Source of the DNA: Bacteroidota bacterium
GTDB lineage: Bacteria; Bacteroidota; Bacteroidia; Bacteroidales; FEN-979
Length of the DNA stretch: 64,000 bases
Direction: 5' to 3'
Assembly (NCBI GenBank): GCA_037133475.1
Contig: JBAXOB010000017.1
Location: forward strand, 5,092-69,091
The first letter of the stretch is position 1, and each line of letters starts with the position of its first letter. The notes beneath the pieces are model-generated. The model was not told the DNA's origin, did no database searches, and saw only the letters and a list, made by a program, of their open reading frames with translations. The translations under genes and the position numbers were made by a program. Below are positions 97-29,062 of the stretch, piece after piece.

Positions 97-3000
97 TCAT
101 TTTACCAGTACTTTCCTCACCACCGTATGATCGCTGCTGAGGAACAGTACGGAGTACATGCCACTGACTGCAGGACGGATATCGATCAGCAGCTCGGCAG
201 CGCTTTGTGCCCGGATGTCGTCACGTTCGAAAATCTTTTCACCAAGCGGGTTGAAAACCAGGATCGTGTAAGTTGAAGAAGCCGTTTCTGGAATGAAGAC
301 TTTAAAACGCCCGTCATTCGGAACAGGGAAAACTCTGATTTTACCGGTTGCCAGTTCATCGAGGCCATCAAAAAGGACATACACATGGTTTGACTCAAGC
401 GACGGGCATCCTACACCCATCACCACGGTCCAGTACCAGCCGGTTATCGTTGCGGTATAGGTTTGCGATGTCGCTCCGGGGATGGCGCCTGTTCCTTCGT
501 AATACCACTGGTTGCCCGACTGGGTGCTGCTGGTCAGAAGGGAACCCGAGGCTGTTACCACGGGCGCCCCCTGGGAGGCTACCATGGTTATGGTCAGCGC
601 GGGAGAAACGGCGCCGCTTCCACAGACGTTGGTTCCTTTAACGGTAATGTTTCCCGTTCCTGCTGTCAGGCTGAAGCTGACAGTAATCTGGTTTGTCGTG
701 GCGCCGGCTGTGATCGAGGCTCCTGCGGGTACCGTCCAGTCGTAGGTTACAGCATTGGCAATGGATGCAACACTGTAAACCACATTGTTGGTTCCGGCGC
801 AGACAAGGTTTGGCCCGGTGACAGGTCCTGCTGCTGCGGGCATCTGGAAAATAGTTACGGGCAACGAGGGGGAAGTTGTCCCGTTACCGCAGGAGTTCGT
901 GCCTGTTACGGTGATGTTCCCTGCGACAGCCGATGCGCTGAAGTTCACGGTGATGTTGCTGGTCCCAGAACCTGTTGCTATCGTGGCGCCGCCAGGCAGT
1001 GCCCAGTTGTACGATGAGGCATTGGCAACTGGTGAAACAGAGTAGGGAATACCGCTGCTTCCTGCGCAAACGCTGCCATTCCCGGCGATCGCACCTGCTG
1101 CGGCCGGGAAGGGGGCCACGGTTACCGTTTTGGAAACAGGGGCGCCGGCAGTACAGTTGCCGGCATTGGTGTAGTTGACCGATACCGTCTGGGTTCCGGC
1201 GGAGATCCAGGAAACTGTGATATTATTCGTGCCGGTGCCTGCTGTAATGGCACCACCGGCAGATACCGTCCACAGGTAACTGGACATGCCTGCTTCCGTG
1301 GTATAGGCGACGCCGGTTGTTCCTTCGCACACCGATGAAGATCCCGTAATTGTCGGGGCCGGCAGGGGATTGATGGTTACATTGGTTACGACAGGATTCA
1401 GGGCACTGCATCCCGATGGATTTGTATAGTTGACGCTTACGGTTTGGGGTGTCGATCCGTTCCAGGTAACCGTCACGGTATTATTTGTCGGACTGCCGCC
1501 ACCCGTAACGGATCCTCCGGCAGAGATGATCCATGAATAACCTGTCATCCCGTTCTCGGTGGAGTAAATGTTGCCTGAAGATCCGTTGCAAACCGAAAGG
1601 GGGCCTGTCAGGGTTGGGACCGGCAGTGCATTCACGGTCACCGGCTTGCTGGTAGCTGATGCTGCATAACAGCCTCCCGGATTGGTATAATTGCAACTGA
1701 CCGATTGCGACCCTGCTGTGTTCCAGGTCACCGTGACGGAGTTGTTCGCAGTGCCCCCTCCACTCGTCACGGATCCGCCGGCAGATACAATCCAGGTATA
1801 ACCCGTCATCCCCGTTTCCGTGGAATAGACATTACCTGGCGAGCCGGCACAGGCGTTTGAAGGGCCTGAAATGGTCGGCACCGGCAAGGTATTAACCGTG
1901 ACGGTTTTCGAAGTGGGGGAAACTGCCGTACACCCGGCAGGGGTTGTGTAATTACAGGTTACCGATTGCGCCCCTGCCGTGGTCCAGGTGATGGTTACGT
2001 TATTGCTGGAAGCTCCGCCTCCGGACGTGACAGATCCGCCTGCACTGACATTCCAGACATATGCCGACATCCCGGTTTCGGTGGTGTAGGTATTCCCTGC
2101 CGAACCTGCACATACGCTGCCCGCACCTGTGATCGATGGCACTGGCAATGAGTTTACCGTGACAGCTTTTGAAACCGGGGTTGCAGCAGTACAACCGGTG
2201 GCAGGTATGGCATAATTGACGGTAACTGCCTGTGAACCCGCGGTAGTCCAGTTAACCAGGATGGAATTCGTGGCGGCGCCTGAAACGATCGTTCCGCCTG
2301 CAGGGATATTCCACGCATACGATGACATAGAGGCTTCCGTTGTATAGGGGACATTGGCAGCGCCGGCACACACGCTGCTGTTCCCGGTGATCGTCGGGAC
2401 CGGGAGAGGATTAACCGTCACTGTTTTTATGGTAGGAGGAGCTGCCGTGCATCCGCTCGTGTTGGTATAAACCACGCTGACCGTCTGGGCTCCGGATGTA
2501 TTCCAGGTAACCGTAATAGCGGAGGTTCCTGAGCCTCCCGTAACCGTGCCCCCTGCCGAAACGGTCCATACATAACCGGTCATGCCCGTAGAGGTTGAAT
2601 AGCCATTTCCTGTGGATCCGGCGCAAACTGCGGCAGAACCCGTTATGACCGGCACAGGCAAAGGATTTATCGTAATCGGGAGACTTGAAGGCAAACCCTG
2701 CCCGCAGGAATTTGTCCCCTTCACCGTAATATTACCGGATGAGGCGGTTGTTGCATAGTTTACAACAATAGAACGGGTATTGCCTCCTGAAATGATCGAT
2801 CCTCCGGTTGGAACTGTCCAGATATATCCGGTGGCATTGGTGATGGCGGGCACGCTGTAGGCAACATTATTGGTGCCGGCACACAGCACCTGCGTTCCTG
2901 TGATGATACCGGCATCGCCGATATAGTTGTTGGAAATGGTGGCATTGATATAATAGGTAGAGGTTGGCACATCATTCATGGGAGCCCCGTTTTCGTCAGC

Positions 3001-3596: not shown

Positions 3597-3633
3597 TAAA
3601 AAACAAAGCCGTCCCCGGGTGGAAACGGCTTTG
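3597..3633 (-). terminator. Rho-independent terminator downstream of giant gene 2
   Basis: The 9-bp stem CAAAGCCGT (3604-3612) pairs with ACGGCTTTG (3625-3633). On the minus strand it is followed by a T-run (complement of A-run 3597-3603). It lies ~20 nt after the stop codon at 3654. Confidence 0.7.
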
Positions 3634-3653
3634 TGAAAGCATGTTATTACCCG

Positions 3654-4930
3654 CTATTTGCTCACGATCAGCTTCTTCACAACCTTGTGTTCACTGTTGA
3701 AGAATACCACCGAATAAATGCCGGTCGGTACCGGGCGCAGGTCGATCTGTTTCTCGAAAGTGCCGGCAACATTCACATCACCGAGTTCGTAGATCTTCGC
3801 TCCCAACTGGTTGTAAACGGCAATGGTATAGGTTTCCGAAGCGGGGCTGGTTATCGAAACGGTAAAACGACCGTCGTTGGGTACCGGGTAGATGCTGAAG
3901 CTGCTGTTTTCAACCTCCTGCATCCCTGTGAGAACCACCCAGATCTTATTGGAAATTGGCGAAGAGCATCCGTTGGTTGTCACAACGCACCAGTAATAGC
4001 CGGTATGGTGGGTTGCGGTATAGGTACGGCTGGTTGCACCAGCGATGGCGGTGCCCTCGTAATACCACTGGTTGCCTGTAAGGGCGCTGCTGGTAAGAAC
4101 ATTTCCGGAAATGGTGATGACCGGTGCAGGCGGGATCGCATTCATCGTGACATTGATTGACGCAACAGCTCCGTTTCCGCAGGTGTTGGTGCCTTTTACC
4201 GTGATCACCCCGGTGCCGGCAGCAGTACCATAGGAAACGGTGATGTTCCGCGTTGTACCCCCGGAAGTGATGGTTGCTCCGGCCGGGACTGTCCAGACAT
4301 AAGCAGTGGCATTGGCAATGGCCGCGACGCTATAGGCAACACCGGTTGATCCCACGCAAACCGAAGCCGGACCCGTGATGGCGCCTGCAGCAGCAGGAAG
4401 AGGATTTACGGTAACGGCAAATGCAGGAGAAACAGTCCCGTTGCCGCAGCTGTTTGTACCGGCAACGGTGATATTTCCCGATACCGCGCTGGCGCCAAAG
4501 TTTACGGTGATGTTCCTCGTTCCGGCTCCTGTAGCAATGGTGGCTCCGGCAGGAAGTGTCCAGGTATAGGTGGTGGCGTTGAGAATTTCAGCACAGGAGT
4601 ATGCTACTCCGTTTGTTCCGGCACAAAGCGATGCAGTGCCTGTGATGGCTCCGGCGGCATTGGGCAACGGGTTCACAAAGAGGTTGTAAACTGTTGGCGT
4701 AACAGCGGCACATCCGTATGTATTCGAATAGCTCACGCTCACCCATTGCGCACCGACACCGGTCCACGTAACATTGAGGGTGTTGGTACCCTGTCCCGAA
4801 ACGATGGTTCCTCCGGCAGATACGGCCCAAAGATAATTCAACATTCCCGCATTGGTGATATACTGGTTGTTGGTTGAACCGACACAGGGTGCGTTGCTGC
4901 TGCCGATCGTGGGTACGGCAGCGGGGTTGA
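3654..4930 (-). repeat. Diverged copy of the ~1.27-kb conserved C-terminal cassette (B repeat, two A repeats, GNQWYY module, CTD)
   Basis: Encodes NPAAVPTIGSSNAPCVGS...KKLIVSK. It is collinear with the C-terminal ~425 aa of genes 3, 4 and 5 and highly similar at protein level. Nucleotide identity is roughly 75-85% by eye, not computed. Confidence 0.8.
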
Positions 4931-7900
4931 TGGTGACATTGAGGGTGGTTGCGGTTAGTGCGCTGCACCCGGTGGTATTAGAGTAGTTTACGCTGACGGA
5001 CCGGTTCCCTGCATAGGGCCATGATACCGTGATGGCATTGGTTCCGGCACCGGCCACAATGGTTCCGCCGAGTGATACTGACCAGTTGTAGGCGGTCATT
5101 CCGGCTTCCGTGGTATAAACAACCCCTGCCTGGTTGGCGCAAACGACACTGGGCCCGGCAATGGTCGGTGTCGGCAGGGCTGAAACATTAACTGCGTAGG
5201 ATGAGGGAGTTGCCGCAGTACAGCCATTCCCGTTCGTGTAGGTGACTGTGACGGTTTTAGCGCCTGAAGTGGTCCAGGTCACCGTTATGCTGGAGGAGGC
5301 TGCCCCGGCGGTAATATTGCCGCCAGCCGAAACGGTCCAGGTGTAGCCTGTCATACCGGTCTGGGTGGTATAGACATTCCCGGATGAACTGATGCAGACA
5401 TTCGCAGGGCCTGTGATGGAGGGTACCGGTAACGGGTTGACGGTTACTGCCAGCGGGGCTGAAACGGTTCCGCTGCCGCAGATGCTGGTCCCGGTAACGG
5501 TCACATTTCCTGAAGCCGAACCGGCCGGGAAACTGACGGTAATCGTATTGGTGTTAGCCCCGGCGGTAATGATGGCGCCGGCCGGGAGCGACCATACATA
5601 ATTGGTGGCATTGGCAATTACAGGGACGGTAAATATGTAACCTGTTCCCGTACTGCATACAGTGGCCGGACCCGTAATGGCGCCAGCGGCAGAAGGTATC
5701 GGGCAGCCCGTCGAGAAAACTAGGTCGGCGCCATAATTGGTTCCGGAGGTGTTGACTCCCTTGGCCCTGAAGTGGTAGGTGGTGGCTGGTGAAAGTCCCG
5801 TGATGGCTGCAGATATTCCTGTTACCGAATACCCGGTTGCGGTGGCCGGTGTCGCCGTTGCGACAGATCCGTAAGCAACGGTCAACCCGTATTCAAAGCT
5901 TGCCGTTGTATTGAGGTTGTTGGCGTTGATGGTGCCGTTAAGGGTGGCCAGGTTGGCGCCGATGCCTGTTGCAGCCGTTGTGATGACACTTGGAGGAGGC
6001 TGTGTGCCGGTGAAGGTTCCGAACGAAGTTAACCCGCTGGCGGTAAGCTGGTGGGTTGCGACGACAGCGGGATCGTAAGGCACGTAGGGAGTAGGGTTGA
6101 CAAGCGTGCAAAGGATCAGGCTTTCGGTGCCGTTCACGTCGGCTGGAACATACTGGAAGGTGGCACCGCAGATAAAGGCGGTGATACCGCTCTGGGTTAA
6201 GGCCCAGTAACGTTTCAGGTAGCTCCCGGTGTTCGGGTCGGTCGGGTATTTGGCATTCACCAGGTTTACCCCGGCATAATTGCCGGCAGCGAAAGTGCCG
6301 CTGGTGAAATTCAGGGTTACCGGTGAGTATTCTGCCGTAACAGTGTTGTCGCCAACGGGATAGGTGAAGCTGCCTGTGAATCCTGTTGCATAGCTCTTCT
6401 GTAACTGCCCTGTTCCGGTAGCTACGATCATGGCCGTGGCTGAAGGAGTGCCGGAGATGGCGCCTGTGGTTCCCAGGAAGAGGTTGGCGGATCCCAGTGT
6501 AACCAGCCCGTTGGTCAGTTTAAGGGTCCCGTTCACGGTAACCGGCGTGCTGAGGTTGATGCCATTTGTATTGATGACCTCCAGGGTCGAATTGGCGCTG
6601 GTAGTAATGGTGCCGGCACCGGAGATGGTCTGGGTGGCGGTTCCGTTAAGGGTAACGGTTCCTGCAGTGGCAGGCGTGAAATTGAGGATTCCGCCGGTGG
6701 CAACCACGATGTTGCCATGGATCTGGTGAACGCCCGAGGTAGGGCCGGTCACATTGAAATTAAGGGTGCCGTTGGTTACGGTGAGGTTGTCCATCGCCAC
6801 AGGGCTTCCGCCGGTCGGGGTGAGAACGAAACCGGCCGCATCCACCTCGAAATTGGCATAGGTTCTGCCTGAGAAGGATGGCGTCAGGTTGGCGATGACC
6901 TTATAGAGACTTCCTGTTTGAAAAACTACGACGCTGGTGGGCTGGGCTGCTCCGAAGGGGTTGCTTCCGGCCTGCTGGATAAAGGTCGATCCGCTTGCGA
7001 ATACAACAGATCCAAGGTTGCTGATCCCGAATGGATTTCCTGAGAAGAAGAGACCCGCCGTGAAGACCGCTCCTGAGTTGAAGGTGATGCCCGAAGGGTC
7101 AACGGCAGTCAGCCGGTGCGCCGTCGCAATCGTTGAAGACATGGTCATGTTGCCGCTGATGACACCGGTTGCAGCCGTTAAAATATTGATGGTAATGGCG
7201 CCCGTTCCGTTCAGGTTGAGGGTGCAACCTGCCGGGATATCAAGATCGGTGCCTGCAACCCCGCTGATGGTAAGGGTTGCGGCTGCAGCGCTCTGAAGGC
7301 TGACGTTGGTATTGTTCGACATCACCAGTTTTCCGATGGTTTCTGCTGCGGGAACGCCTGTCACGGTTTTCGTGGTACCGTCGTTGAACTGCAGTATGTC
7401 GGTCGAAGCAACCACGAACCGGGTTGGATTCCAGTTGGTTGTAACGGTCCAAAGGCCAAGGTCGGCGCCCTGCCAGGTATAGGTAGCCGGACCGGTTCCA
7501 GTGGTGGTGGCGTTGGCGCTCGGGATTGTCGGTGCTACATAATAGTTATAGGTCGCATTGTTTGTTCCGTCCCATGCAAAAGGGATAATGGTAAATGAAT
7601 ACTGGGTTGCAGGCGATAAACCCGAGATGGTTTTTGACAGGGTTGATCCCGGCAGCACCAGGGCTGCAACGGTACCATCGCCAAGAGTTGCGCCCACCGT
7701 ATAGCCGGTGGCATCCACGGGGATCCCTGTGGGTGCTGCCGCCCCGTTTTTCTGCAGGATCAGGTAACCATCGGCGCCGGTAGCGGCGGCAGTCCAGGTC
7801 AGGTTAATGGTGGTTGTCCCGGTTGGCACGGCGGTAAATCCCGTAACATGTGTTGTCGGCTCATTGGCCAGGGTGAAAAATGAGGCCTCCGAGGTGAGCG

Positions 7901-9590
7901 TTGTGCCCACTGAGTTGGTGGCATATGCTTTAAAAAAGATCTGTGTCTTGGCGGGTAAGGCCGATCGCAGGTGGGAGAAAGCGGTAACGGTGGTGCCCCC
8001 TTCGGCAAGCTTGTTGTCGGTGATGGCCACGCCGGTGGTGAGTTTCCAAACAGTGCCGCGTTCGGTAATGGCTGAGCCGCCATCGCTGGTGATGGTTCCG
8101 CCCAATACTGCCGTGGTATTGGTGATGGTGACCGCTGTCGGCAACGAGATCACAGGGGCTGTCGCGGCTGCGATGGTCGCCTGGCTGTTGGGGTTCAGGG
8201 TGGCGGTTGTGGTGAGATATTTGGTGGTCGCCCCCGTTCCGTTATATTCATATACCCTGAACCAGTAGGTGGTGCTGCCGGTAAGTCCCGTAACACTCAC
8301 GGAGCTGCCGGTATTGTTGTAAACGACCTGTTCGCCGCTACCGGCATAGGTGGTGTTTGCAGCCGGATCGGTGCCATCGGCCGGATTGGTGAAACTGTTG
8401 ACCGTATTCATGATGACGACCCGTTTTGCGCCGTTGCCGATGGTCCAGTTGGCGGTCATGCCGGTTGAGGAGATTCCCGTGAAGTTGATATTGGAGGCCT
8501 GAATCGTTGGAGCTGAAATGGCCGAACCCGGCGCAAAAGCAATACCACGGAAGGCCTTGGCCGTTGAGGAAATGTTTGCGATTGAGGTAACAGTCCCGAT
8601 AATTGTCGCATTGTAACCCGACGCATCGGTCACGGTAACGAGGTTGCTGTTGTAGGGTGACGAAGTTGTGGCAGAGGTTCCATATAGGGTGACACTGGTT
8701 CCTGTTGCGGTACCGGTGATGGTTCTGATGGCGGCGTAGGCTAAGGTGCCGTTTGATGTCCAGCTGCCGGCAACGAGTGAATATTTCTGAATGGTTCCTC
8801 CGTCATCGGCGATATATACAACATCAACACCAGGTGTTGCAGGATCCAGGTCGAAGAAGCAGAATCCATAGGGACTGCCCCCGCTTGTGGGATACCCGGG
8901 AAGGTTGGTTGTTGTCTGGCCGCTGGTGGTAGGTGTACCTGTGCCAATGGTTGCAAGACGGAACGCTCCGGATGCAGAGGTGGTGTAAAGTTGGCCGCCA
9001 AAGATATTGAGCCCCCTGAGATTGGTAACGGTCGTGGACAGCTGGGTAGAGATAGTGGCCCCTAAGGTTGCGTAACGCGCACCGCCGACTCCGCCGTCGA
9101 TCCATAAGTTGGTTCCGTCGGTACTGCAGGCAGCCCGGGGGTTGCTTCCGGTTGCTGCATCAGTTAATGCAGTGGTGGTATTGATAACGCCTGCTGCACT
9201 GACAACCCCGATGATACGGGGAATAGCGGTGGAGGCAGAGGATGTAAGTACCGTCGCATTGGGAAGCGCGGCTCCGTATCCTGCCATGACCAGGTACTGG
9301 CCATCGGCAGAGCGGGTCATCAGGCCTTCCGATGAGGCGTTCCCGGCCGATACGAGAGGCTGGTTTGAACCGGTAACAACAGTTGGTAAGGCTACCGACT
9401 GGACAAGGGTCCCCGAGGTGGTATATTCATCCAGGAACACAGCATTCCCGGTATTGACCAAAGCATTGACTCCGTCACCAACCCTGTATATTACAAGGTT
9501 TCCCGGCGTAAACTGGGAATACCCGGTACTGTGCAAACCAATCAATAATACTGCCAGAAGACTAATGGCTAAAAGTGTAAATCTTTTCAT
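3654..9590 (-). CDS. Giant T9SS cargo/surface protein 2 (1978 aa): unknown ~330-aa head, FN3-like modules, long Thr/Gly/Asn-rich beta-rich region, PKD-like stalk, type A T9SS CTD
   Basis: Uninterrupted 1978-codon ORF. Signal peptide MKRFTLLAISLLAVLLIGLHSTGYSQ. FN3-like segments (..TTYWFRVYEYNG.., ..SFEYGLTVAYGS..TTYHFRAKG). Three B repeats. C-terminus IYPVPNDGRFTVSI...GIYSVVFFNSEHKVVKKLIVSK. Confidence 0.9.
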   Translation of the reverse strand: MKRFTLLAISLLAVLLIGLHSTGYSQFTPGNLVIYRVGDGVNALVNTGNAVFLDEYTTSGTLVQSVALPTVVTGSNQPLVSAGNASSEGLMTRSADGQYLVMAGYGAALPNATVLTSSASTAIPRIIGVVSAAGVINTTTALTDAATGSNPRAACSTDGTNLWIDGGVGGARYATLGATISTQLSTTVTNLRGLNIFGGQLYTTSASGAFRLATIGTGTPTTSGQTTTNLPGYPTSGGSPYGFCFFDLDPATPGVDVVYIADDGGTIQKYSLVAGSWTSNGTLAYAAIRTITGTATGTSVTLYGTSATTSSPYNSNLVTVTDASGYNATIIGTVTSIANISSTAKAFRGIAFAPGSAISAPTIQASNINFTGISSTGMTANWTIGNGAKRVVIMNTVNSFTNPADGTDPAANTTYAGSGEQVVYNNTGSSVSVTGLTGSTTYWFRVYEYNGTGATTKYLTTTATLNPNSQATIAAATAPVISLPTAVTITNTTAVLGGTITSDGGSAITERGTVWKLTTGVAITDNKLAEGGTTVTAFSHLRSALPAKTQIFFKAYATNSVGTTLTSEASFFTLANEPTTHVTGFTAVPTGTTTINLTWTAAATGADGYLILQKNGAAAPTGIPVDATGYTVGATLGDGTVAALVLPGSTLSKTISGLSPATQYSFTIIPFAWDGTNNATYNYYVAPTIPSANATTTGTGPATYTWQGADLGLWTVTTNWNPTRFVVASTDILQFNDGTTKTVTGVPAAETIGKLVMSNNTNVSLQSAAAATLTISGVAGTDLDIPAGCTLNLNGTGAITINILTAATGVISGNMTMSSTIATAHRLTAVDPSGITFNSGAVFTAGLFFSGNPFGISNLGSVVFASGSTFIQQAGSNPFGAAQPTSVVVFQTGSLYKVIANLTPSFSGRTYANFEVDAAGFVLTPTGGSPVAMDNLTVTNGTLNFNVTGPTSGVHQIHGNIVVATGGILNFTPATAGTVTLNGTATQTISGAGTITTSANSTLEVINTNGINLSTPVTVNGTLKLTNGLVTLGSANLFLGTTGAISGTPSATAMIVATGTGQLQKSYATGFTGSFTYPVGDNTVTAEYSPVTLNFTSGTFAAGNYAGVNLVNAKYPTDPNTGSYLKRYWALTQSGITAFICGATFQYVPADVNGTESLILCTLVNPTPYVPYDPAVVATHQLTASGLTSFGTFTGTQPPPSVITTAATGIGANLATLNGTINANNLNTTASFEYGLTVAYGSVATATPATATGYSVTGISAAITGLSPATTYHFRAKGVNTSGTNYGADLVFSTGCPIPSAAGAITGPATVCSTGTGYIFTVPVIANATNYVWSLPAGAIITAGANTNTITVSFPAGSASGNVTVTGTSICGSGTVSAPLAVTVNPLPVPSITGPANVCISSSGNVYTTQTGMTGYTWTVSAGGNITAGAASSSITVTWTTSGAKTVTVTYTNGNGCTAATPSSYAVNVSALPTPTIAGPSVVCANQAGVVYTTEAGMTAYNWSVSLGGTIVAGAGTNAITVSWPYAGNRSVSVNYSNTTGCSALTATTLNVTINPAAVPTIGSSNAPCVGSTNNQYITNAGMLNYLWAVSAGGTIVSGQGTNTLNVTWTGVGAQWVSVSYSNTYGCAAVTPTVYNLFVNPLPNAAGAITGTASLCAGTNGVAYSCAEILNATTYTWTLPAGATIATGAGTRNITVNFGASAVSGNITVAGTNSCGNGTVSPAFAVTVNPLPAAAGAITGPASVCVGSTGVAYSVAAIANATAYVWTVPAGATITSGGTTRNITVSYGTAAGTGVITVKGTNTCGNGAVASINVTMNAIPPAPVITISGNVLTSSALTGNQWYYEGTAIAGATSRTYTATHHTGYYWCVVTTNGCSSPISNKIWVVLTGMQEVENSSFSIYPVPNDGRFTVSITSPASETYTIAVYNQLGAKIYELGDVNVAGTFEKQIDLRPVPTGIYSVVFFNSEHKVVKKLIVSK

Positions 9591-9751: not shown

Positions 9752-9800
9752 TAAAGATTTTGGGAGACTCCGGTCATTTCATTATTAAGAAAATATTAAC

Positions 9801-15836: not shown

Positions 15837-15911
15837 TCAGAGGATTAACTCATTGTAATTATCACAAAATTATACAGTGTTGTATTTCATGATATTACGA
15901 ATGATTCAATG

Positions 15912-20345: not shown

Positions 20346-20387
20346 CTAAAACGAAACAAGGCCCTGGTACTTAAACCGGGGCCTTGT
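20346..20387 (-). terminator. Rho-independent terminator downstream of giant gene 5
   Basis: The stem ACAAGGCCC (20356-20364) pairs with GGGCCTTGT (20379-20387), and extra inner pairs are possible. On the minus strand it is followed by TTTCGTTTT. It lies ~20 nt after the stop codon at 20408. Confidence 0.65.
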
Positions 20388-20407
20388 CTCAAGCGGGATA
20401 ACCCATG

Positions 20408-21685
20408 TTATTTATTCACAAGCACCTTCTTGACAACTTTATGTTCGCTGTTAAGGAATACCACTGAATAGATACCATCGGCGATAGGACGGAGATCGAT
20501 TTGCTTTTCGAAGGTGCCGTTTACCCTGATGTCGCCAAAATCATAGATTTTTGCGCCAAGCTGGTTGTAGATCACCACGGAAAATACCTCCTCTACAGGG
20601 CTGGCAATGGAAACGGTAAACCTGCCGTCGTTGGGCACCGGGTAAACGTTGAAGCTGCTGCTTTGCAGTTCATCAACACCGGTAACCACCACCCATACTT
20701 TGTTTGAAATCGGCGAGGAGCATCCGTTAGTGGTGACCATGCACCAGTAATACCCGGTATTATGGGTAACCGTGTAGGTTTGGGAAGTAGCGCCTGCAAT
20801 TGCATTGCCTTGATAATACCACTGGTTTCCCGTAGGGGCGCTGGATGTCAGCACCGCGCCGTTGACGGTTACCGTCGGGGCGCCCGGGATGGCATTCATC
20901 GTGACGTTGAAGTTGGCAGATACCGTGCCGTTTCCACAGGCGTTGGTTCCTTTAACGGTGATTACGCCTGTTCCGGCGGTCGGGCCATAGCTGACCACGA
21001 TATTCCGGGTGGTGGCGCCGGCAGTAATGGTAGCGCCGGCAGGAACGGTCCAGGCATAAGCAGTGGCATTGGCGATGGCGGGTACGCTGTAGGCAACGCC
21101 GGTGGCTCCCACGCAAACGGAGGCAGGACCCGCGATGGCCCCTGCGGCAGCCGGCAACGGGTTAACCGTAACGGCAAATGCAGGGGATGGTGTGCCATTG
21201 CCGCAACTGTTGGTACCGGAAACAAGAATGTTCCCTGAAACTGCGCTGGTGGAGAAGTTGACGGTGATGTTCCTGGTACCGGCCCCGGTGGCAATCGTTG
21301 CGCCGGCGGGCAGGGTCCAGGTAAAGGAGGTGGCATTGAGGATGTCAGCACAGGAGTAGGCGACCCCATTGGTTCCCGCACAAAGGGTGGCAGTCCCGGT
21401 GATGGGGCCTGCGGCGTTCGGCAACGGGTTGACGAAGAGGTTGTAGACGGTGGCAGCAGCAGCGGTGCAGGAGGTGGTGTTGGTGTAATTTACACTGACC
21501 CACTGTGCGCCTACGCCTGTCCACGTTACATTGATGGCGCTGGTGCCCTGGCCCGAAGCAATGGTGCCTCCGGCAGAAACAGCCCAGAGGTAACCGGTCA
21601 TCCCGCCTTCGGTATAGTACATATTCCCGGTCGAACCAACACAGGGAGCATTGTTGCTGCCGATGGTCGGCACGGGAGCCGGGTT
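20408..21685 (-). repeat. Diverged copy of the conserved C-terminal cassette
   Basis: Encodes NPAPVPTIGSNNAPCVGSTGNMYYTEGGMTGYLWAVSAGG...KKVLVNK, collinear with the cassettes of genes 2-4. Nucleotide identity is roughly 80% by eye. Confidence 0.8.
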
Positions 21686-24600
21686 GACGGTAACGTTGAA
21701 CGTTGCCGGTGTTACTGCCGTGCACCCGTTGGCATTGGTATAGTTAACCGTAACCGTGTTTAATCCTGAAGATGCCCATGTAACCGTAACGGTGTTGCTG
21801 ATTGCGGTGCCACCGGCGGTGACGACACCACCTGCCGACACGGTCCAGATGTAATTGGTCATCCCGGCCTGGGTGGTGTAAACCACACCGGCTGTTCCCT
21901 GGCATAATATTGCCGTTCCCGTGAGGGTGGGTACCGGCAGGGGGTTAACGGTAACGGCATAGGATGCCGGTGCTGCAGCAGTACAGTTGCTTGCATTGGT
22001 GTAGCTGACTGTGACTGTGTTCGCCCCGGTGGTTGACCAGGTAACGGTGATGCTGTTGGTAGCTCCACCGCCCGTGATGGCGCCTCCGGCGGATACGGTC
22101 CAGGTATAACCTGTCATACCGGCCTGTGTGGTATATACGTTGGTTGTTGAGTTCACGCAAACGCTTGCAGGACCTGTAATGGTGGGTACCGGCAATGCAT
22201 TAACCGTTACGGCATAGGACGACGACGGACCGGTCATACAGATGCCGACACCGGCAACGGTAATATTTCCGGAGGTTGTACCGAAAGTCACGGTTATGGT
22301 GTTGGTTCCTGCACCCGCGGTAATGGCCGCCCCGGCGGGAAGGGTCCACGAATAACTGGTGGCATTCGTGATTGCCCCGACCGAATAAACAATACCCGTG
22401 GAGTTGGCACATACGGAAGCGGGTCCCGAAATAGTACCTGCTGCCGGGACAACCGGACATCCCGTGAGGAAGGTAAGGTCGTTGCCGTTGGTGGTTCCGC
22501 CTGCATTGATGCCTCTAACCCTGAAATGGTAAGTCGTGGCGGTGAGCAGTCCGGTAATCGTTGCGCTGACATTCTGGTTGGTCACCCCGGTCACTGGTGT
22601 GGGCGTACCCGCAACGGTAGTTCCGTAGGCAACGGTGAGACCGTAATCAAACCATACTGCCGTGGATGCGTTGTTGGCATTGATGATGCCGTTCATGGTG
22701 GCATTGGTGGTGCCGATCGCGGTAGCTGCGGTTGTCGTGACAGTCGGTGCGGCGGCTGCCGTGGTGAAGGTCATGTCGTTGCCGTTGATGGTGCCGCCGG
22801 CATTGGTTCCGTTGATCCTGAAATGATACAGGGTGTTGGGAACAAGGCCTGTGATATTGGCCAGCGATACCTGAACGGTGTTGCCGGTAATGGTAACAGG
22901 AACTCCCGGCACATTGGTGCCGTAAGCTACGGTCGTACCATAATCGAACGATACGGTGGTGGCAAAGTTATTGGCATTCACCGTTCCGTTCAGGGTGGCC
23001 GTTGTCGTGGTAACGAGCGTTGCGGCAGTGGTGACGACGGTCGGGGGACAGAATGTATTGAAGGTCATATCTGCGCCGACATACGGGGTGGCACCCACCA
23101 TTCCTTTTGCCCTGAAGTGATATATAATGCAGTTTGACAACCCGGAAAGGTTGGCTGAAAAGTTGGTTGTTGTTGTGCCTGTGACATTAACGGGCACGGC
23201 GGCAATGTTTGAACCGTAGGCAACCGTGAGTCCGTAATCAAAACTGGTAATGACCAGTTCATTGTTAGCCAACGCTGATCCGTTCAGGGTAGCACTGGTA
23301 CCGGTGACGAGGGTTGCGGCCAATGTGGTAATAACGGGAGCAACGGTGAACTCATAGGCCCCGATATCAGGCGTAGAAATGCGGGTTACGCCGGCATAGT
23401 CGGTGGTGACCGCCGCGATGGTCGTTCCTGCATTGTTCAGTTCCACCTTTGCGGTATGCAGGTCGGTGGAGGATACAAACTGGGGATCCACGTTCTGTGA
23501 GTTATAATCACCGCCGGTGGCCGTTCTCCATGCTGCCATGGTTGTCTGGTCGGCTGCGTTGTAGTAGGCCAGTGTTCCTGAAGCGGAATAGAGGTCGTTG
23601 TAATTTGAACTCCACACGCCTGTGCTGGAAATGTAAGCGGCATAATGCTTACCGGTTCCGCCGGCTACCCTGTTATTGGCAAAGATATTGTTGTTGACGG
23701 TATAAAAGGCTGCAACGCTGCGATAGAAAGCATAGGTGGTTGATGTGGTTGTAGCCGGTCCGCTCACATAGAAATCGTTGTAATACAGGTTAAAGAACGA
23801 GGTGGAATAGGACCCATCATAAAATCCGTAGATGACGGGATTGGTTGCCAGGCCGCCGTCGAGCGTAACCAGGTTGTTTGAGTATTCATTGGTAACCCCG
23901 CTGGCTCCATAGTTATAGATGCCATATATGTAAGGCGTTAATCCGGCATTGGCACAGGAAATGTTGAAGACCTTATTCTTCTTCACATTGGCCGAATAGA
24001 TATACATGCCCCGGGCATAAGGTGAACCGGTGGTTCCGGTCAGTGACCAGTTTCCGAAGATATTGTTTTCAACTGCATTCCCGGGGTTTGCGGTAGAGCA
24101 ATAGAGGCCCCAGATGGAACCTGGTCCTGCCATGGAGATGGAACCGGCGACGGTGTTGCTACCCAGGATGTTGGGCGTTACAGTGCCTACTTTAACCCAC
24201 CCGCCGGTAAGTCCCATCAGGTAAATGGCGCCGGTATAGGCGGTGTTGGTGAAGCTGATACCCGAAACGGTATTGCCCTGGATGAAGGAAGCCGCAGTAG
24301 CGGAAAGTGACCCGTAGATTCCATAGAAATACCCTGCCGACAGGGCACAGGTAATCGAGGTTGGTACGGTCGGGTTCCCGATGACATTATTCAGGATGTT
24401 GGCAACACCAGCGGTGAAATTGATGCCATAAAGATAGGCGCTGCCGGTGTTTGACATGTTGATATTCTGAACCGTGTTGTTTGAAATGGTAGTCGGGGTG
24501 ATAACACCAAGCGTCAGGTACATTCCGTAAATATAGTTGGTCGTGGCATTCGTCCAGGCTGTGCCTGCACAAAGAGGAGCCGAGCCGCCCACGTAGTTGT

Positions 24601-27600
24601 TGCTGATCGTATGGTTGTTGGTGCTCCCGATGAGGTATATCCCGTATTGCGTTGCAGTGGATGCGGTTGCAGAGTTGTAATAAAAACTGTTCCCCGTGAT
24701 AACTGCGCCATTGGCAACCGTGGTGAAATACAGCCCGTAGTTTTTATAATTATAGATATTGTTGTTGATAACCCTGAGGGAATTGAGGAAATTGGCATTG
24801 TAGATCCCGGTGGTCTGAACGCCTGTCGTTCCTCCGGTTGCATCCCCGATATTATTCCCGTTGATTTCAACGATGTTGTTGCCGGTTGTGCCGATATTGA
24901 CGGTTCCGTAGGTGGTGGTGGTGCCGTTATTTTCAATGGTGCAATTCTTCAGGTAACAGGCCTGCGATCCATTGTTGAACTGGATGGTGGGTCCAGTGTT
25001 GGCCGCCGTGGCATTGGTATTGCGGAAGGTCAGGTATTTGCCGGCCTGTCCGTCGATGGTGAAGCGGCTTGCGCCATTGGTTCTGATCATGGCAATCCCG
25101 GTGCCGACGGCCGTGCCGCTGATGGTGCGGAGGGTGGTTGCATCGGGCTTGATGGTCAGGGTGTAGTTTGCACCCGGAACATCCTCGGCCCAAGGGTTGA
25201 GGGCGACCGTGCCCGGTTCGACCAGGTCGGCGGTGATGTTGATGGTCGTATTGCCGACAAGCACGCCCTGGTTGATCATGTCAAAGGCACCGCCTGTATT
25301 GGTCAGGGTGGCATAGGTCCCGGGAACTGTGATGGTTGTAGGGATTGATCCGGAAACGATGGTATAGGTCTGGAAATTGGCAGGTTTAGCGTTGATGTTC
25401 TGTACCGGAGGATTGGCGCTGGCGCCGGCCATCAGGTAGTTTGAACTGAGGTTGTTGGCTGCATCCTGTGCCACGACAAAATACTGGATGATGTCGCCCG
25501 CAACCACGCTGCCCGTATTGATGATACCGTAGTTAATGGTAAAACTGAAGGGACTGACCGTGTTGCTTGCGGTAACATATTTCCAGCCGTTGTCGGCACT
25601 GGTGTTTCCAACGAATGCATCGGCATCTGTCGATTTTTTGAAATAGATCCTGGGAAGGCTTGCACCCGTTGATACACCTACGTTATCGGTAATTGTCGCC
25701 CAGTTGGTCAATACGCGGTTGGCAGTGGTGCCGTTGCCCATGGCCACATAGGAGATGTTGGGTCCGAAAACGTCGGCCGAAAGGGTGAAGTTGCCGGCAT
25801 CGGCGCCAACATCGGTAGGTGTGAGGCCGCTGCGGGCAGTTCCGTCATAATCATCGGTGACATTGGCAAGCGCCTTTCCGGCCGCTTCGATCGGGGTTGG
25901 GCTCTGTACATGCAGGTTGGCCGTGGCGGTATTGCCGTTGGGAGCCACAAAATTAGGATCTGCATTCCCGCTGGCCATTTCGGTGTTGGTGGCACCCTTG
26001 TAGGCTGCGAAGGTTGCCTGGTCGGCCGAGTTGAAATAACCGAAGGTGCCGCCGGTTGCCCCGTTGGCAAGGATCAGGTTGTAATTGCTGGTAACGCCCA
26101 ACGGGAAGATGGTCGTGCCGGCGATCCTGATACCGTAATGTTTTCCGGTTAAACCGCCTGAACGGGTATTGACGAAGATGTTGTCGAGGCAATACCGCGG
26201 GGTCGATAACGAGGGAGTCATTACGCTGTTGAAGGCATAGGTGTTTCCCGTGGTTACGGCAGCCGGGGCGCCCCCGATATAGACGCTGTTGTTCAGGATG
26301 CTGTCAACGGTGGCGGTACTCTCATAAATACCGTTGATGATACAGCTGGAGGTGTTGGCCGATCCGTCGGGATTGACACCCAGCTGGATCATGTTGTTCC
26401 TGGCAGTAACATAGGTACCCCCGTCGGAGAGGTAAAGCCCTGTCAGCTGTCCGGTTGCACTCGAAGTAGCCAGGCCCATGTTGTGGATGAAGTTTTTCTC
26501 GATCAGCAGGCTGCCGGCGGTATGGCCTGTATAGATGCCATGGGCGCCAACCGCTGCCAGGGGTTCGGTGTTGGTAAGGTTATAAATAAGGTTCGAGCGG
26601 ATGATGGACCCGGGAACTGAATTCAGCGAATAGATACCCACCAGCGAGGCGATACCCGCAATGGTGGTGTTGGCCGCCGAGGTATTCAGGTCGCGGATGG
26701 TGTTGTTGCTCAGAACATTGGGCAGACCGGTGCCGGCGGCATAGATACCAACGATATGTGATCCGTTATAGGAACTCAGGTTGTTGATATTGGCAACCGT
26801 ATTGTTGGCAACCGACATGGTGCCGGAACCTGTCGACGAGATAAAGAAGGCCTGCAGCTGGACCGGAGGGTAGGCCATCGCCGGTGTCTGGATACTGTTG
26901 GCGGTGGTGAGACTCCCGGCGAGGTTACCGCTTACGGATATGGTGCCGTTCTGCACGGTCGGTGTCACTGAAAATGGTCTCAGGGTAAGGGTGTAGGTCG
27001 ATGTTGAACCTGCAGCACCTGTGATGGAGAAAGATCCGAAGGTATTGTTCGTGACATTCCCGTACATGCCCCTGAAATCGAGTCCTTCGTAGGTGGATGC
27101 ATATGCGCCGTTACCCACGGAGATCGAGATCGACCCGGTGCCGGTGGCAGACCCGATCGTGTTGTTGGAGATATTCTGGATACCGGCTACGGAAAGCAGA
27201 CCGGTAAAAAAGATGGATGCAGCGGTAGGATTGGTGTACAGCACGATATTGGCAATGGTATTCCCCTGGATTGTGCTGGGATTGATCGTAAGAACGCCCG
27301 TCTGGAAACGCAGGGCATAGATGAAATTGGCAATGGTGGGAGGAGTTCCGTTCCCGTTGAGCGTCCAGGGCGTACCGCCGCAGTTGGCGGCAGATCCGCC
27401 GATGTAATTATTGAGGATATTAAAGCCATCACCGGAAGCAAGGAAAATAACATTGTATCCTACAGCAACCGTCGGGTTCATGGTGTTTGCCATGTAAAAA
27501 CTGTTTCCGCTGATGGTCCAGCCCGTTGAGCCTGAGAACAAACCAATGCCGATCGGGTTGCCTCCTGCGGGAGCATAGAAATCGTGAATGAGGCAGTTTG

Positions 27601-29062
27601 AAATGGTATTGTTGCTGTTGAACAATAACGGGGAGGCAGAACCTGAAGAGGCAACGGCATAAAGCGGGGAGGTTGCGCCATCCCTGATTTCGCAGTTATC
27701 GATCAGGTTGTTGTTGTTCCCGGTTAATGCGGTGGTGCCCCCGAAGTTAACGGTTCCAAAGGTACCGGCATTGTTAGCGCCTTTTATAATGCAATACTGG
27801 ATAGCGTTATAGGAGGATCCGTTGACAAGTCCAACCGTAAAACCGGTTGTGGAGGTATTATCCAGGATAAGGCTTTTGGTGGTCCCGGCAGCATTCACCC
27901 GGCCGTCAAACACAACGTATTGCGCACCTGAGTAGTAAATTGTGCCGCTGGCGCTGGCGCTGGAAACGGAAAGTCCAGCGGCCGAAGGATAAACGGTTAC
28001 CTTTTGGGTTGAACTTGTCCCGGCGATCGGGTTGATGATGATGGGAAAAGTTTCAACTGTTGAAACGTAGGTCGATTGGAGGATCAGGTTTACAGCACAT
28101 GAAATCCCGTTGGCGGCCAGATCCTGGAAGGCGGCGGTCAGGGAGAGATAGTTGCCTGTAGGGCCAACTGTTTTGTTGCCGCATACAGGAATTGGCGGAA
28201 GGGTGATCTGTGATCCTGTAAGATAGGCAGATTCTGCATCGGCAAAAGCGACCACCCTGAAATAATAGGTAACCCCGGCAATCAAACCGGTTACAGGTTG
28301 CGAGTAAAGCGTGCCTGTAGTGGCGACTGAGGTAGAGGTAATATCAGTACCTACCTGGGTGTAGGTAACCAGGTCGGTCGATTTATAAACCCTGAAACCG
28401 ACCTCATTGGTCGAATTGTCGGTCCAGCCTATGTTCATACTGGATTGGGTGACGGCAGAGGCCGTAAAGTTGATGGGCGGTGCCGGGATGATCGGGTTGA
28501 GCACCCTGAATTCGTCAACGCCGATATCGGTAACCCCCCAGTCGGAGGTTGCGGTAAGCTTGATTTTGGTGGTGGCCGAATTTCCCGGGAGGGTGGTTGT
28601 GTATTCCGTCCATGCTGCGGAAACCCCAAGGGTTCTAAGGGTGGCTGACCAGGTGGTTCCGCCGTCGTTGGACGAATATACGTTCAGAACGTCTGTTCCG
28701 GAGGTGTTGATGTAGTAAAATTTCACGACAACAGCACCCGCAGTGTAGGCTGAAAGGTTAATTACAGGGGTGATAAAGTCACCGGTTGTGCCACTTGTAG
28801 CATCATAACTGTGAAATCGTGCAGAATGAAGGGTTGAATTTGCACCGGCAGGCGTATAGGAACCAGAGGTGCTTGTCCACCCCGTGGTGTAATCATCGCG
28901 CTGCCACTGGTCATCAGCCGGCGTGGAGGTTCCTGACCATGCCGGAGAAAGGGTTGATGGGATCGTCCATGCAGCCTCAAAGTTCTGCGTGAAGATTGTC
29001 TGACCAACTGAATAATAACTGGTCGCAATCATAAACAACAAAAAAAGTAGAATTTTTCTCAT
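20408..29062 (-). CDS. Giant T9SS cargo/surface protein 5 (2884 aa): MAM-like N-domain, FN3, two complete parallel beta-helix units, three FN3-like modules, PKD-like stalk, type A T9SS CTD
   Basis: Uninterrupted 2884-codon ORF. Signal peptide MRKILLFLLFMIATSYYSVGQ. FN3 segment (PPINFTASAVTQSSMNIGWTDNSTNEVGFRVYKS...YYFRVVAF). Many NNxIxN beta-helix turns. FN3-like modules SFDYGLTVAYGS, SFDYGTTVAYGT and WFDYGLTVAYGT. Three B repeats. C-terminus VYPVPNDGRFTVSI...GIYSVVFLNSEHKVVKKVLVNK. Confidence 0.9.
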   Translation of the reverse strand: MRKILLFLLFMIATSYYSVGQTIFTQNFEAAWTIPSTLSPAWSGTSTPADDQWQRDDYTTGWTSTSGSYTPAGANSTLHSARFHSYDATSGTTGDFITPVINLSAYTAGAVVVKFYYINTSGTDVLNVYSSNDGGTTWSATLRTLGVSAAWTEYTTTLPGNSATTKIKLTATSDWGVTDIGVDEFRVLNPIIPAPPINFTASAVTQSSMNIGWTDNSTNEVGFRVYKSTDLVTYTQVGTDITSTSVATTGTLYSQPVTGLIAGVTYYFRVVAFADAESAYLTGSQITLPPIPVCGNKTVGPTGNYLSLTAAFQDLAANGISCAVNLILQSTYVSTVETFPIIINPIAGTSSTQKVTVYPSAAGLSVSSASASGTIYYSGAQYVVFDGRVNAAGTTKSLILDNTSTTGFTVGLVNGSSYNAIQYCIIKGANNAGTFGTVNFGGTTALTGNNNNLIDNCEIRDGATSPLYAVASSGSASPLLFNSNNTISNCLIHDFYAPAGGNPIGIGLFSGSTGWTISGNSFYMANTMNPTVAVGYNVIFLASGDGFNILNNYIGGSAANCGGTPWTLNGNGTPPTIANFIYALRFQTGVLTINPSTIQGNTIANIVLYTNPTAASIFFTGLLSVAGIQNISNNTIGSATGTGSISISVGNGAYASTYEGLDFRGMYGNVTNNTFGSFSITGAAGSTSTYTLTLRPFSVTPTVQNGTISVSGNLAGSLTTANSIQTPAMAYPPVQLQAFFISSTGSGTMSVANNTVANINNLSSYNGSHIVGIYAAGTGLPNVLSNNTIRDLNTSAANTTIAGIASLVGIYSLNSVPGSIIRSNLIYNLTNTEPLAAVGAHGIYTGHTAGSLLIEKNFIHNMGLATSSATGQLTGLYLSDGGTYVTARNNMIQLGVNPDGSANTSSCIINGIYESTATVDSILNNSVYIGGAPAAVTTGNTYAFNSVMTPSLSTPRYCLDNIFVNTRSGGLTGKHYGIRIAGTTIFPLGVTSNYNLILANGATGGTFGYFNSADQATFAAYKGATNTEMASGNADPNFVAPNGNTATANLHVQSPTPIEAAGKALANVTDDYDGTARSGLTPTDVGADAGNFTLSADVFGPNISYVAMGNGTTANRVLTNWATITDNVGVSTGASLPRIYFKKSTDADAFVGNTSADNGWKYVTASNTVSPFSFTINYGIINTGSVVAGDIIQYFVVAQDAANNLSSNYLMAGASANPPVQNINAKPANFQTYTIVSGSIPTTITVPGTYATLTNTGGAFDMINQGVLVGNTTINITADLVEPGTVALNPWAEDVPGANYTLTIKPDATTLRTISGTAVGTGIAMIRTNGASRFTIDGQAGKYLTFRNTNATAANTGPTIQFNNGSQACYLKNCTIENNGTTTTYGTVNIGTTGNNIVEINGNNIGDATGGTTGVQTTGIYNANFLNSLRVINNNIYNYKNYGLYFTTVANGAVITGNSFYYNSATASTATQYGIYLIGSTNNHTISNNYVGGSAPLCAGTAWTNATTNYIYGMYLTLGVITPTTISNNTVQNINMSNTGSAYLYGINFTAGVANILNNVIGNPTVPTSITCALSAGYFYGIYGSLSATAASFIQGNTVSGISFTNTAYTGAIYLMGLTGGWVKVGTVTPNILGSNTVAGSISMAGPGSIWGLYCSTANPGNAVENNIFGNWSLTGTTGSPYARGMYIYSANVKKNKVFNISCANAGLTPYIYGIYNYGASGVTNEYSNNLVTLDGGLATNPVIYGFYDGSYSTSFFNLYYNDFYVSGPATTTSTTYAFYRSVAAFYTVNNNIFANNRVAGGTGKHYAAYISSTGVWSSNYNDLYSASGTLAYYNAADQTTMAAWRTATGGDYNSQNVDPQFVSSTDLHTAKVELNNAGTTIAAVTTDYAGVTRISTPDIGAYEFTVAPVITTLAATLVTGTSATLNGSALANNELVITSFDYGLTVAYGSNIAAVPVNVTGTTTTNFSANLSGLSNCIIYHFRAKGMVGATPYVGADMTFNTFCPPTVVTTAATLVTTTTATLNGTVNANNFATTVSFDYGTTVAYGTNVPGVPVTITGNTVQVSLANITGLVPNTLYHFRINGTNAGGTINGNDMTFTTAAAAPTVTTTAATAIGTTNATMNGIINANNASTAVWFDYGLTVAYGTTVAGTPTPVTGVTNQNVSATITGLLTATTYHFRVRGINAGGTTNGNDLTFLTGCPVVPAAGTISGPASVCANSTGIVYSVGAITNATSYSWTLPAGAAITAGAGTNTITVTFGTTSGNITVAGVGICMTGPSSSYAVTVNALPVPTITGPASVCVNSTTNVYTTQAGMTGYTWTVSAGGAITGGGATNSITVTWSTTGANTVTVSYTNASNCTAAAPASYAVTVNPLPVPTLTGTAILCQGTAGVVYTTQAGMTNYIWTVSAGGVVTAGGTAISNTVTVTWASSGLNTVTVNYTNANGCTAVTPATFNVTVNPAPVPTIGSNNAPCVGSTGNMYYTEGGMTGYLWAVSAGGTIASGQGTSAINVTWTGVGAQWVSVNYTNTTSCTAAAATVYNLFVNPLPNAAGPITGTATLCAGTNGVAYSCADILNATSFTWTLPAGATIATGAGTRNITVNFSTSAVSGNILVSGTNSCGNGTPSPAFAVTVNPLPAAAGAIAGPASVCVGATGVAYSVPAIANATAYAWTVPAGATITAGATTRNIVVSYGPTAGTGVITVKGTNACGNGTVSANFNVTMNAIPGAPTVTVNGAVLTSSAPTGNQWYYQGNAIAGATSQTYTVTHNTGYYWCMVTTNGCSSPISNKVWVVVTGVDELQSSSFNVYPVPNDGRFTVSIASPVEEVFSVVIYNQLGAKIYDFGDIRVNGTFEKQIDLRPIADGIYSVVFLNSEHKVVKKVLVNK

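Follow-up and report, generated by a model that had tools for sequence, protein, structure and literature searches.

What are five giant, consecutive genes that share their C-terminal stalk and anchor and carry different N-terminal heads? We addressed this question for a 64,000-nt stretch of contig JBAXOB010000017.1 (GenBank assembly GCA_037133475.1, positions 5,092 to 69,091 of the forward strand) from an uncultured freshwater Bacteroidota bacterium of the order Bacteroidales; the whole of this stretch is called the window. An earlier note, made from the sequence alone, had described the genes as a surface-display family of type IX secretion system (T9SS) cargo. They all lie on the minus strand and were named g1 to g5 by ascending window coordinate. 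Judged from sequence, the array encodes tandem paralogous fibrillar adhesin-like (FA-like) surface proteins that are T9SS cargo, a reading to which we give a probability of about 0.72. It is carried by the stalk and the type A T9SS C-terminal domain (CTD) common to the five proteins, and by the variety of heads found on the same tail in related genomes.

One stalk and anchor in five genes

A hidden Markov model (HMM) iterated on the repeats of the five proteins recovered 33 units of two subtypes, A and B, arranged as A-B(n)-A-A with n = 6, 3, 4, 2 and 3 in g1 to g5. The Pfam family PKD_6 (PF19408) matched the same proteins 9, 6, 7, 5 and 6 times, with E-values from 1e-79 to 1e-121. The genes are:

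97-3441, minus strand: g1, 1114 aa; signal peptide, cohesin-like head (aa 36-130), A-B6-A-A PKD_6 stalk, immunoglobulin-like (Ig-like) module with one Cys, CTD
3654-9590, minus strand: g2, 1978 aa; signal peptide, beta-propeller (aa 27-355), FN3-like region (356-700), domain of about 490 aa (701-1193), one YGLT module, A-B3-A-A, two-Cys module, CTD
9907-15483, minus strand: g3, 1858 aa from MKTCLL; Cleaved_Adhesin/MAM-like jelly roll, Ig-like domain, beta-helix-like region, three YGLT modules, A-B4-A-A, two-Cys module, CTD
15912-19832, minus strand: g4, 1306 aa; signal peptide, head of three beta-sandwiches (aa 21-505), two YGLT modules, A-B2-A-A, two-Cys module, CTD
20408-29062, minus strand: g5, 2884 aa; MAM-like domain, fn3, beta-helix 1, Ig-like domain, beta-helix 2, three YGLT modules, A-B3-A-A, two-Cys module, CTD

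The program-made list of open reading frames (ORFs) agrees with the earlier note on the number, strand and lengths of these genes, which sum to 27,435 nt or 43% of the window. The order common to all five is zero to three FN3-like modules, the PKD_6 repeats as A-B(n)-A-A, an Ig-like module of about 60 aa and the type A CTD. The FN3-like modules before the stalk (YGLT...TYHFR) number 0, 1, 3, 2 and 3 in g1 to g5, so that their reported presence in genes 2 to 5 stands with counts of 1, 3, 2 and 3 in place of a range of one to four. Domains of the fn3 type were also matched by Pfam in the array proteins.

The Ig-like module (GNQWYY...GYYWC..TTNGCSSP) and the CTD form the most uniform part of the proteins: the last 185 aa align with a mean column identity of 82%. 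The claim of one fixed C-terminal module order held by Pfam and the repeat HMM in all five proteins, except that the g1 copy of the supposed two-Cys module keeps only one Cys. The Pfam scan matched no family to this module. A search with the 185-aa profile found it in tandem, in up to 42 copies, in other giant proteins, and because of these long tandem copies we regard it as an Ig-like repeat in its own right. Two of the proteins so found, P0286 (3842 aa) and P0287 (4447 aa), hold about 40 tandem modules each.

All five C-termini matched Por_Secre_tail (PF18962), with 40.0, 38.6, 39.2 and 31.3 bits for g2 to g5 against a cut-off of 27. TIGR04183 of NCBIfam matched g2 to g4 with 32.1, 28.7 and 29.1 bits (cut-off 23); g5 had no TIGR04183 match at E ≤ 0.01 and in NCBIfam returned only a choice-of-anchor Q (choice_anch_Q) match at aa 1877-1905. 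The g1 CTD is the weakest-scoring of the five and still aligns over its full length with the other four. The last residues are ...VKKVLVNK, ...VKKLLVNK, ...VKKLIVSK or ...VRKVLVK.

At the N-termini we found, judging by eye, one or more basic residues, a hydrophobic stretch and a cleavage-like site of small residues (e.g. MKKTLLFFFACILAVYSFGQ), which fits the proposed signal peptide in each gene. For g3 this is true only from the internal start MKTCLL. Its longest ORF reaches 15645, and the upstream 54 codons (15484-15645, minus strand), which hold no signal peptide, are probably not translated. Signal peptides, a CTD model match in g2 to g5 and T9SS machinery genes in the window are the features of type A cargo that we found by sequence.

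The spacers between the array genes measure 212-575 nt and hold the terminators that had been proposed for genes 2 to 5. Each of these consists of a hairpin and a U-tract, with folding free energies from -22 to -34 kcal/mol:

3603-3634, minus strand: hairpin terminator 3' of g2
9801-9833, minus strand: hairpin terminator 3' of g3
15798-15839, minus strand: hairpin terminator 3' of g4
20352-20391, minus strand: terminator-like hairpin 3' of g5

Upstream of g5, g4 and g2 we noticed the Bacteroidetes -7 box TAnnTTTG, which is weak evidence for promoters; a sigma-70 promoter scan says little in Bacteroidota. No terminator follows g1. Its stop codon overlaps the ATG of the next gene (ATGA), which suggests that the two may be translationally coupled:

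1-100, minus strand: start of a conserved secreted PD40/TolB-like propeller-repeat gene of about 965 aa, its ATG overlapping the g1 stop

Relatives, synteny and head exchange

With the last 421 aa of g5 as query, over 635 proteins were retrieved at E ≤ 1e-20, and almost all are fragments from Bacteroidales or Bacteroidota metagenome bins. With the profile of the last 185 aa we obtained 613 clusters (50% identity) at E ≤ 1e-30, the shortest of these proteins having about 250 aa and the longest more than 4500. When species-representative genomes were scanned, 78 loci were obtained in metagenome-assembled genomes (MAGs) of uncultured Bacteroidales, Prolixibacteraceae and Draconibacterium. The isolate names of many loci suggest lake or peat samples (Kiruna, Loclat, Alinen, ELA, Lac Pavin, SPRUCE). 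Since the best tail identity among the 78 loci is about 70%, the window's own species is not among them. In dozens of these loci the module HMMs found the grammar [Y0-4]-A-B(n)-A-A-c-T.

All five genes have orthologues in this set. Locus L024 contains a g5-like gene of 2887 aa and a g4-like gene, L062 a g3-like gene and L003 a g2-like gene, and the cohesin-headed, g1-like member is kept in at least 12 loci. The gene order is partly preserved as well. In L024 a 328-aa epimerase, 76% identical to that of the window, is followed by the g5-like and the g4-like gene. An IS30-family transposase lies between these two (L024 10793-11770, plus strand), where the window has a 575-nt spacer only. L003, L004, L005 and L025 share the order g2-like gene, g1-like gene, PD40/TolB-like gene of about 965 aa.

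The PD40 gene forms the downstream boundary of the array in at least ten MAG loci, whichever member adjoins it (e.g. L001 10549-13446, L004 10546-13443). The 4-nt stop/start overlap at this junction is the same as in the window in L001, L004, L005 and L025; the annotated ORFs of L003 overlap there by 70 nt. The adjoining array holds from one to at least three members, varying between genomes, and the member next to the PD40 gene may be cohesin-headed, bear a 256-aa head or be g2-like. Cohesin-headed orthologues have between 1 and 6 B repeats, and an atypical relative in L076 with a 605-aa head has 9. In L002 two ORFs make up the cohesin-headed orthologue, one of 811 aa (A-B6-A, 1014-3449) and one of 248 aa (A-c-T, 3609-4355); either the gene is a pseudogene there or the split comes from faulty sequencing or assembly of that MAG. 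The comparison of related genomes that the earlier note had proposed therefore yielded syntenic arrays, a varying membership and a head swap.

We compared 61 complete family proteins from the window and the 78 loci, and the same tail was found to bear at least 20 clusters of distal heads. Among relatives these include Laminin_G_3, Kelch propeller, GEVED, Cleaved_Adhesin and Ice_binding, which are mostly lectin or adhesin types. The clearest case of a swap concerns g2. The g2 of L003 is 80% identical to that of the window over the full length. The g2 of L004 is 73% identical from aa 355 (window) or 240 (L004) to the end, and before this clean breakpoint the N-terminal domains are unrelated. An N-terminal domain of the L004 type in place of the propeller is also present in L005, L025, L053 and L056. 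By these alignments, distal head exchange is demonstrated, as the g2 propeller is replaced by another domain in a syntenic orthologue. Thus the idea of a constant stalk and anchor with interchangeable heads was borne out, both by the head clusters on one tail and by the clean g2 swap in L004.

Concerted evolution of the tails

The repeats pair by position across the paralogues: A1, A2, A3 and the last B each have a counterpart. Their identity climbs towards the C-terminus, and A2 and A3 are 83-92% identical among g2 to g5. This orthology by position means that the stalk-anchor cassette was duplicated as a unit. Overall, the paralogues share 40-62% protein identity, and about 70-76% DNA identity over the tails. 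The B repeats within g1 are 55-66% identical in amino acid sequence. Since they are diverged in this way, their number varies on an evolutionary timescale and not by rapid slippage or recombination.

In g2 the tail shares 81-85% identity with those of g3, g4 and g5 versus 74-78% with its orthologues in other MAGs. The same in-genome similarity pattern was repeated in L055 and L001; the g1 tails group by orthology instead. Repeats of more than 90% identity occurred in other MAG loci between adjacent paralogues (L047, L049) and inside single giant genes (L010, L027). By these comparisons the tails of neighbouring paralogues evolve in concert. Within the array the strongest identity was found between g3 and g4:

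9925-11082, minus strand: 1158-nt identical tract, g3 copy; aa 1468-1853, with the last B, A2, A3, two-Cys module and most of the CTD
15930-17087, minus strand: 1158-nt identical tract, g4 copy; aa 916-1301

The tract begins halfway through the last B repeat, ends five codons short of the stop and contains no mismatch. Its borders are sharp, with about 74% paralogue identity upstream and unrelated 3' untranslated regions downstream. It is either a very recent gene conversion or a repeat threaded by the assembler. Each copy has unique flanks, so both must exist; the doubt extends at most to which downstream flank goes with which of the two heads, g3 or g4.

The heads

We examined the heads with Pfam, NCBIfam and structure prediction, and two of them were modelled as distinct folds:

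8526-9512, minus strand: g2 distal head, beta-propeller; uncharacterised but widespread family
18318-19772, minus strand: g4 head, jelly roll, Ig-like domain, jelly roll; resembles the non-catalytic sugar-binding and Ig domains of glycoside hydrolase family 2 (GH2) enzymes

The AlphaFold2 model of g2 aa 27-355, built on a 77-sequence alignment, is a beta-propeller with a predicted local distance difference test score (pLDDT) of 96 and a predicted template modelling score (pTM) of 0.94. Its fold matches are only generic WD40 or lactonase-type propellers, at a template modelling (TM) score of about 0.5. More than 750 homologues at 50-60% identity were found in Chloroflexi, Planctomycetota (Humisphaera, Tepidisphaeraceae), Binatia, Chitinophagaceae and others, and their C-terminal parts are PEP-CTERM, a T9SS CTD, a dockerin, LTD or CarboxypepD_reg. 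The earlier note had listed a domain of about 330 aa and FN3 for this gene, as we also find, and had left out a further domain of about 490 aa (aa 701-1193), which has no match in Pfam (E ≤ 1) or the PDB.

The g4 head was modelled as three beta-sandwiches (pLDDT 89), and its best Foldseek matches are the N-terminal non-catalytic sugar-binding and Ig domains of GH2, at a TM-score of about 0.2. Homologues of this head occur in Bacteroidales, Ignavibacteriae, Acidobacteriota and Hymenobacter, where they carry a bare T9SS CTD, IPTL-CTERM, a dockerin or VCBS repeats. The suggested HMM and structure checks thus gave models for the g2 propeller and the g4 triple sandwich, and no Pfam family for either. 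Neither head was matched by any choice-of-anchor model of NCBIfam at E ≤ 0.01.

The heads of g3 and g5 are homologous. We aligned g3 489-1091 with g5 1613-2204 at 47% identity, g3 189-605 with g5 1100-1563 at 30%, and the N-termini at 28%; an additional fn3 and another beta-helix unit are present in g5. The heads of the array do vary, as had been claimed, but they are not all unrelated: since g3 and g5 share one type, there are four head types among the five genes. Long head-to-head alignments between g2 and g5, seen in a first whole-protein BLAST, disappeared with composition-based statistics and were low-complexity T/G/S/A matches. The N-terminal jelly roll of g3 and g5 aligns with a Cleaved_Adhesin-positive relative and has a weak match that spans the whole Kgp K1 domain (E 0.057), which makes it Cleaved_Adhesin-like. 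The beta-helix assignment comes from a weak Pfam Beta_helix match, the choice_anch_Q match and a PDB profile match, the last obtained with a nine-sequence profile against an uncharacterised parallel beta-helix protein, at no better than E ~1e-3. The g1 head has a single Pfam Cohesin match, with 31 bits against a cut-off of 24.1, which is weak (E 3e-7).

When the isolated heads were scanned with Pfam at E ≤ 1, no family was returned for the g2 propeller, the g2 701-1193 domain, the g3 beta-helix or the g4 head, and the g3 N-terminus gave only a weak Reelin match. Sequence searches of the PDB returned no useful match to the tail, the g2 domain at 701-1193 or the g3 beta-helix. Neither Pfam nor NCBIfam detected a catalytic family in any head of g1 to g5. 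On the models and matches at hand, the heads look like non-catalytic binding modules and are putative ligand binders. Their folds, and the heads of the relatives, make binding rather than catalysis quite likely.

Genomic surroundings

The window also contains T9SS machinery, further T9SS cargo and metabolic genes:

30601-31224, plus strand: 207-aa Fib_succ_major protein (E 3e-31), just upstream of the array, adjoining the epimerase gene
33220-34032, minus strand: VitK2_biosynth, futalosine-type menaquinone gene
34203-34910, minus strand: PNP_UDP_1 nucleosidase, futalosine-type menaquinone gene
36446-39265, plus strand: C10 peptidase, T9SS cargo with Spi inhibitor pro-domain, Cleaved_Adhesin, PKD and CTD
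39279-40943, plus strand: trypsin-like protein, T9SS cargo with CTD
41005-42138, plus strand: CofH/MqnC-like radical SAM enzyme, futalosine-type menaquinone gene
43131-46854: murein recycling and ligase genes (AnmK, Mur ligases)
48533-49525, minus strand: PorP/SprF, 239 bits
49722-53579 and 53590-57021, plus strand: two PorU sortases in tandem, 1335 and 1232 bits to NF033707
57127-58356, plus strand: PorV, 468 bits, equivalog

PorV directly follows the tandem PorU pair, and the divergent PorP/SprF gene, 19 kb from the array, precedes it.

Proposed explanation and its alternatives

We propose that each protein would be exported by Sec through its own signal peptide and that its type A CTD would direct it through the T9SS. 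As in characterised type A cargo, PorU would then remove the CTD, and the mature protein would by analogy be linked to the outer-membrane surface. The 9-12 Ig-like and FN3-like domains may form a rigid stalk of some tens of nanometres that holds the N-terminal head off the cell, and the heads most likely bind different polymers, particles or cells. By the alignments above, the family has evolved by duplication of the whole stalk-anchor cassette, gain and loss of B repeats, replacement of the distal head by domains that use other anchors elsewhere, and gene conversion that homogenises the 3' tails of neighbouring paralogues.

Several points weigh against this explanation. The g1 CTD lies under both curated cut-offs (24.0 versus 27 bits in Pfam, 17.3 versus 23 in NCBIfam). 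Apart from the weak cohesin and Cleaved_Adhesin-like similarities, no head in the window belongs to a characterised adhesive family, and an enzymatic role is conceivable for the g3 and g5 beta-helix heads. Family membership is the basis on which secretion, CTD cleavage and surface anchoring are predicted. Finally, the identity of the 1158-nt tract could come from the assembler's repeat resolution.

If the g3 and g5 beta-helices were lyases or glycosidases, the array could serve the surface-tethered capture and degradation of nutrients, with the sandwich and propeller domains as carbohydrate-binding modules that hold polymers for uptake. The beta-helix fold is common in polysaccharide lyases, and the weak PDB and Pfam Beta_helix matches would agree with such a role, as would the similarity of the g4 model to sugar-binding and Ig domains of GH2. 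Moreover, the other T9SS cargo proteins of the window are hydrolases (C10 peptidase, trypsin-like), and the Fib_succ_major protein adjoins the array. However, no glycoside hydrolase, lyase or carbohydrate-binding module family was found in any head, even at E ≤ 1, and no SusC/SusD or other polysaccharide utilisation genes lie adjacent. The TM-scores of the g4 matches are low, and the heads of relatives are mostly of lectin or adhesin types. We therefore consider nutrient capture fairly unlikely.

A bolder form of the adhesin explanation would regard the cassette of FN3-like, PKD_6 and Ig-like modules and CTD as a resident display vector that repeatedly captures choice-of-anchor heads, some possibly from other phyla, with the array beside the PD40 gene as a trial site for new ones. 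The 50-60% identity of the g2 propeller to Chloroflexi and Planctomycetota proteins can be cited for capture across phyla. In this model gene conversion would keep the anchor-proximal end uniform, so that the members stay matched to a secretion and attachment machinery which, with its two tandem PorU sortases, would itself be unusual. We think this model unlikely.

The cohesin-like head of g1 raises the possibility of a cellulosome-like assembly in which g1 would be a T9SS-anchored scaffoldin that recruits dockerin-bearing partners. Its Pfam Cohesin match is above the cut-off, a cohesin-headed member recurs in at least 12 loci, and some homologues of the g2 propeller and the g4 head bear dockerins (PF00404) in other lineages. 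Yet only one cohesin-like domain is present in g1, its match is weak, the fold of cohesins is that of a generic beta-sandwich, and Pfam found no dockerin in g2 to g5, the rest of the genome not having been searched for dockerins. This makes such an assembly very unlikely.

The earlier note had likened the locus to polymorphic adhesin or toxin loci; as a toxin locus it would be a polymorphic toxin or contact-dependent competition system with swappable effector ends. The resemblance is only general (a constant part and variable ends in a tandem array), and the polarity is reversed, with the variable end N-terminal and the conserved secretion signal C-terminal. No toxin family appeared with Pfam or NCBIfam, PADLOC and PHROGs not being among the libraries scanned, and the gaps of 212-575 nt contain no ORF of at least 200 aa that could be an immunity gene, smaller ORFs not having been listed systematically. 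We find a toxin locus hardly credible and abandoned the comparison.

Equally little credence goes to the notion, named in the earlier note as a refutation, that collapsed or mis-joined repeats produced the shared grammar: short-read assemblers cannot unambiguously place the perfect g3/g4 tract, but all other tails differ by 24-30% in DNA, each tract copy has unique flanks on both sides with unrelated 3' untranslated regions, the paralogues are diverged, and orthologues of all five genes have the same architecture, partly in the same order, in independent MAGs.

Relation to known systems

SprB and RemA of Flavobacterium are very large, repetitive T9SS-secreted adhesins with multiple paralogues. 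In proteins of the SprB type the CTD is of type B, and a neighbouring SprF-like protein is required. We rejected a SprB-like reading because the CTDs of g1 to g5 match type A models (TIGR04183/PF18962). The SprB-repeat family was not returned by the Pfam scan of g1 to g5.

The FA-like proteins tentatively assigned above belong to a class defined by Monzon, Lafita and Bateman (2021), whose main text describes a cell anchor, a stalk built from Ig-like domains in tandem and a head for adhesion or binding (PMC8286594). In that article PF19408 (PKD_6) was created as a stalk domain of fibrillar adhesins, and Por_Secre_tail is listed as the anchor of 124 FA-like proteins, mostly from Bacteroidetes (PMC8286594). 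With 5-9 PKD_6 stalk repeats and the listed anchor, g1 to g5 resemble this class as the main text presents it. No head of the window was assigned to any adhesive Pfam family that the main text names, as distinct from the 27-family supplement; these heads match only Cohesin (g1) and, weakly, a Cleaved_Adhesin-like profile (g3, g5). A relative in L041 carries Ice_binding, which is within the adhesive set given there (PMC8286594). In contrast to the class in general, the stalk here has a fixed composite order (FN3-like, A, B(n), A, A, Ig-like) throughout a whole multigene family, and the genes stand in a syntenic tandem array with tails in concerted evolution.

A second precedent is found in Tannerella forsythia, where the KLIKK proteases are clustered T9SS cargo genes with unrelated N-terminal functional domains on a shared C-terminal extension and a nearly identical CTD (Ksiazek et al. 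2015, PMC4404884). Their authors proposed that pre-existing genes were fused to a common C-terminal cassette (PMC4404884). The likeness is organisational only. In the KLIKK proteins the heads belong to several catalytic classes of protease and have pro-peptides, whereas g1 to g5 contain no peptidase family in Pfam or NCBIfam; the KLIKK extension is short (about 250-280 aa) and lacks a long repeat stalk. Furthermore, g1 to g5 do not end in a KLIKK motif (...LVNK, ...IVSK, ...LVK), and the host here is environmental, unlike the oral pathogen T. forsythia. With these two precedents, FA-like proteins (in the main text cited) and KLIKK proteases, the claim that such an organisation was undescribed for T9SS cargo fails. 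A literature search joining T9SS cargo, domain architecture and PKD found no paper.

The choice-of-anchor models of NCBIfam resemble the present case in that a head recurs before different C-terminal sorting signals, as the g2 propeller and the g4 head do; they name single head domains and not a multigene stalk family. In periscope proteins and other surface proteins of variable repeat number, as far as the part of PMC9704523 used here describes them, the number of stalk repeats likewise differs between orthologues, but through near-identical DNA repeats, whereas the B repeats here are diverged.

Significance

The locus is a new example of a described class, the fibrillar adhesin-like proteins, and not a new mechanism or class of system. 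Particular to it are the fixed composite stalk in a very large environmental family, the syntenic array, the documented head swap and the 1.16-kb conversion tract, which may still be an assembly product. The surface proteins of uncultured freshwater Bacteroidales are almost unstudied. Because anything in front of the fixed stalk is a candidate ligand-binding head, this stalk could be used as a marker to find and sort surface-exposed binding domains in metagenomes. For the T9SS cargo family itself, the locus illustrates three processes, namely head replacement, change in repeat number and gene conversion.

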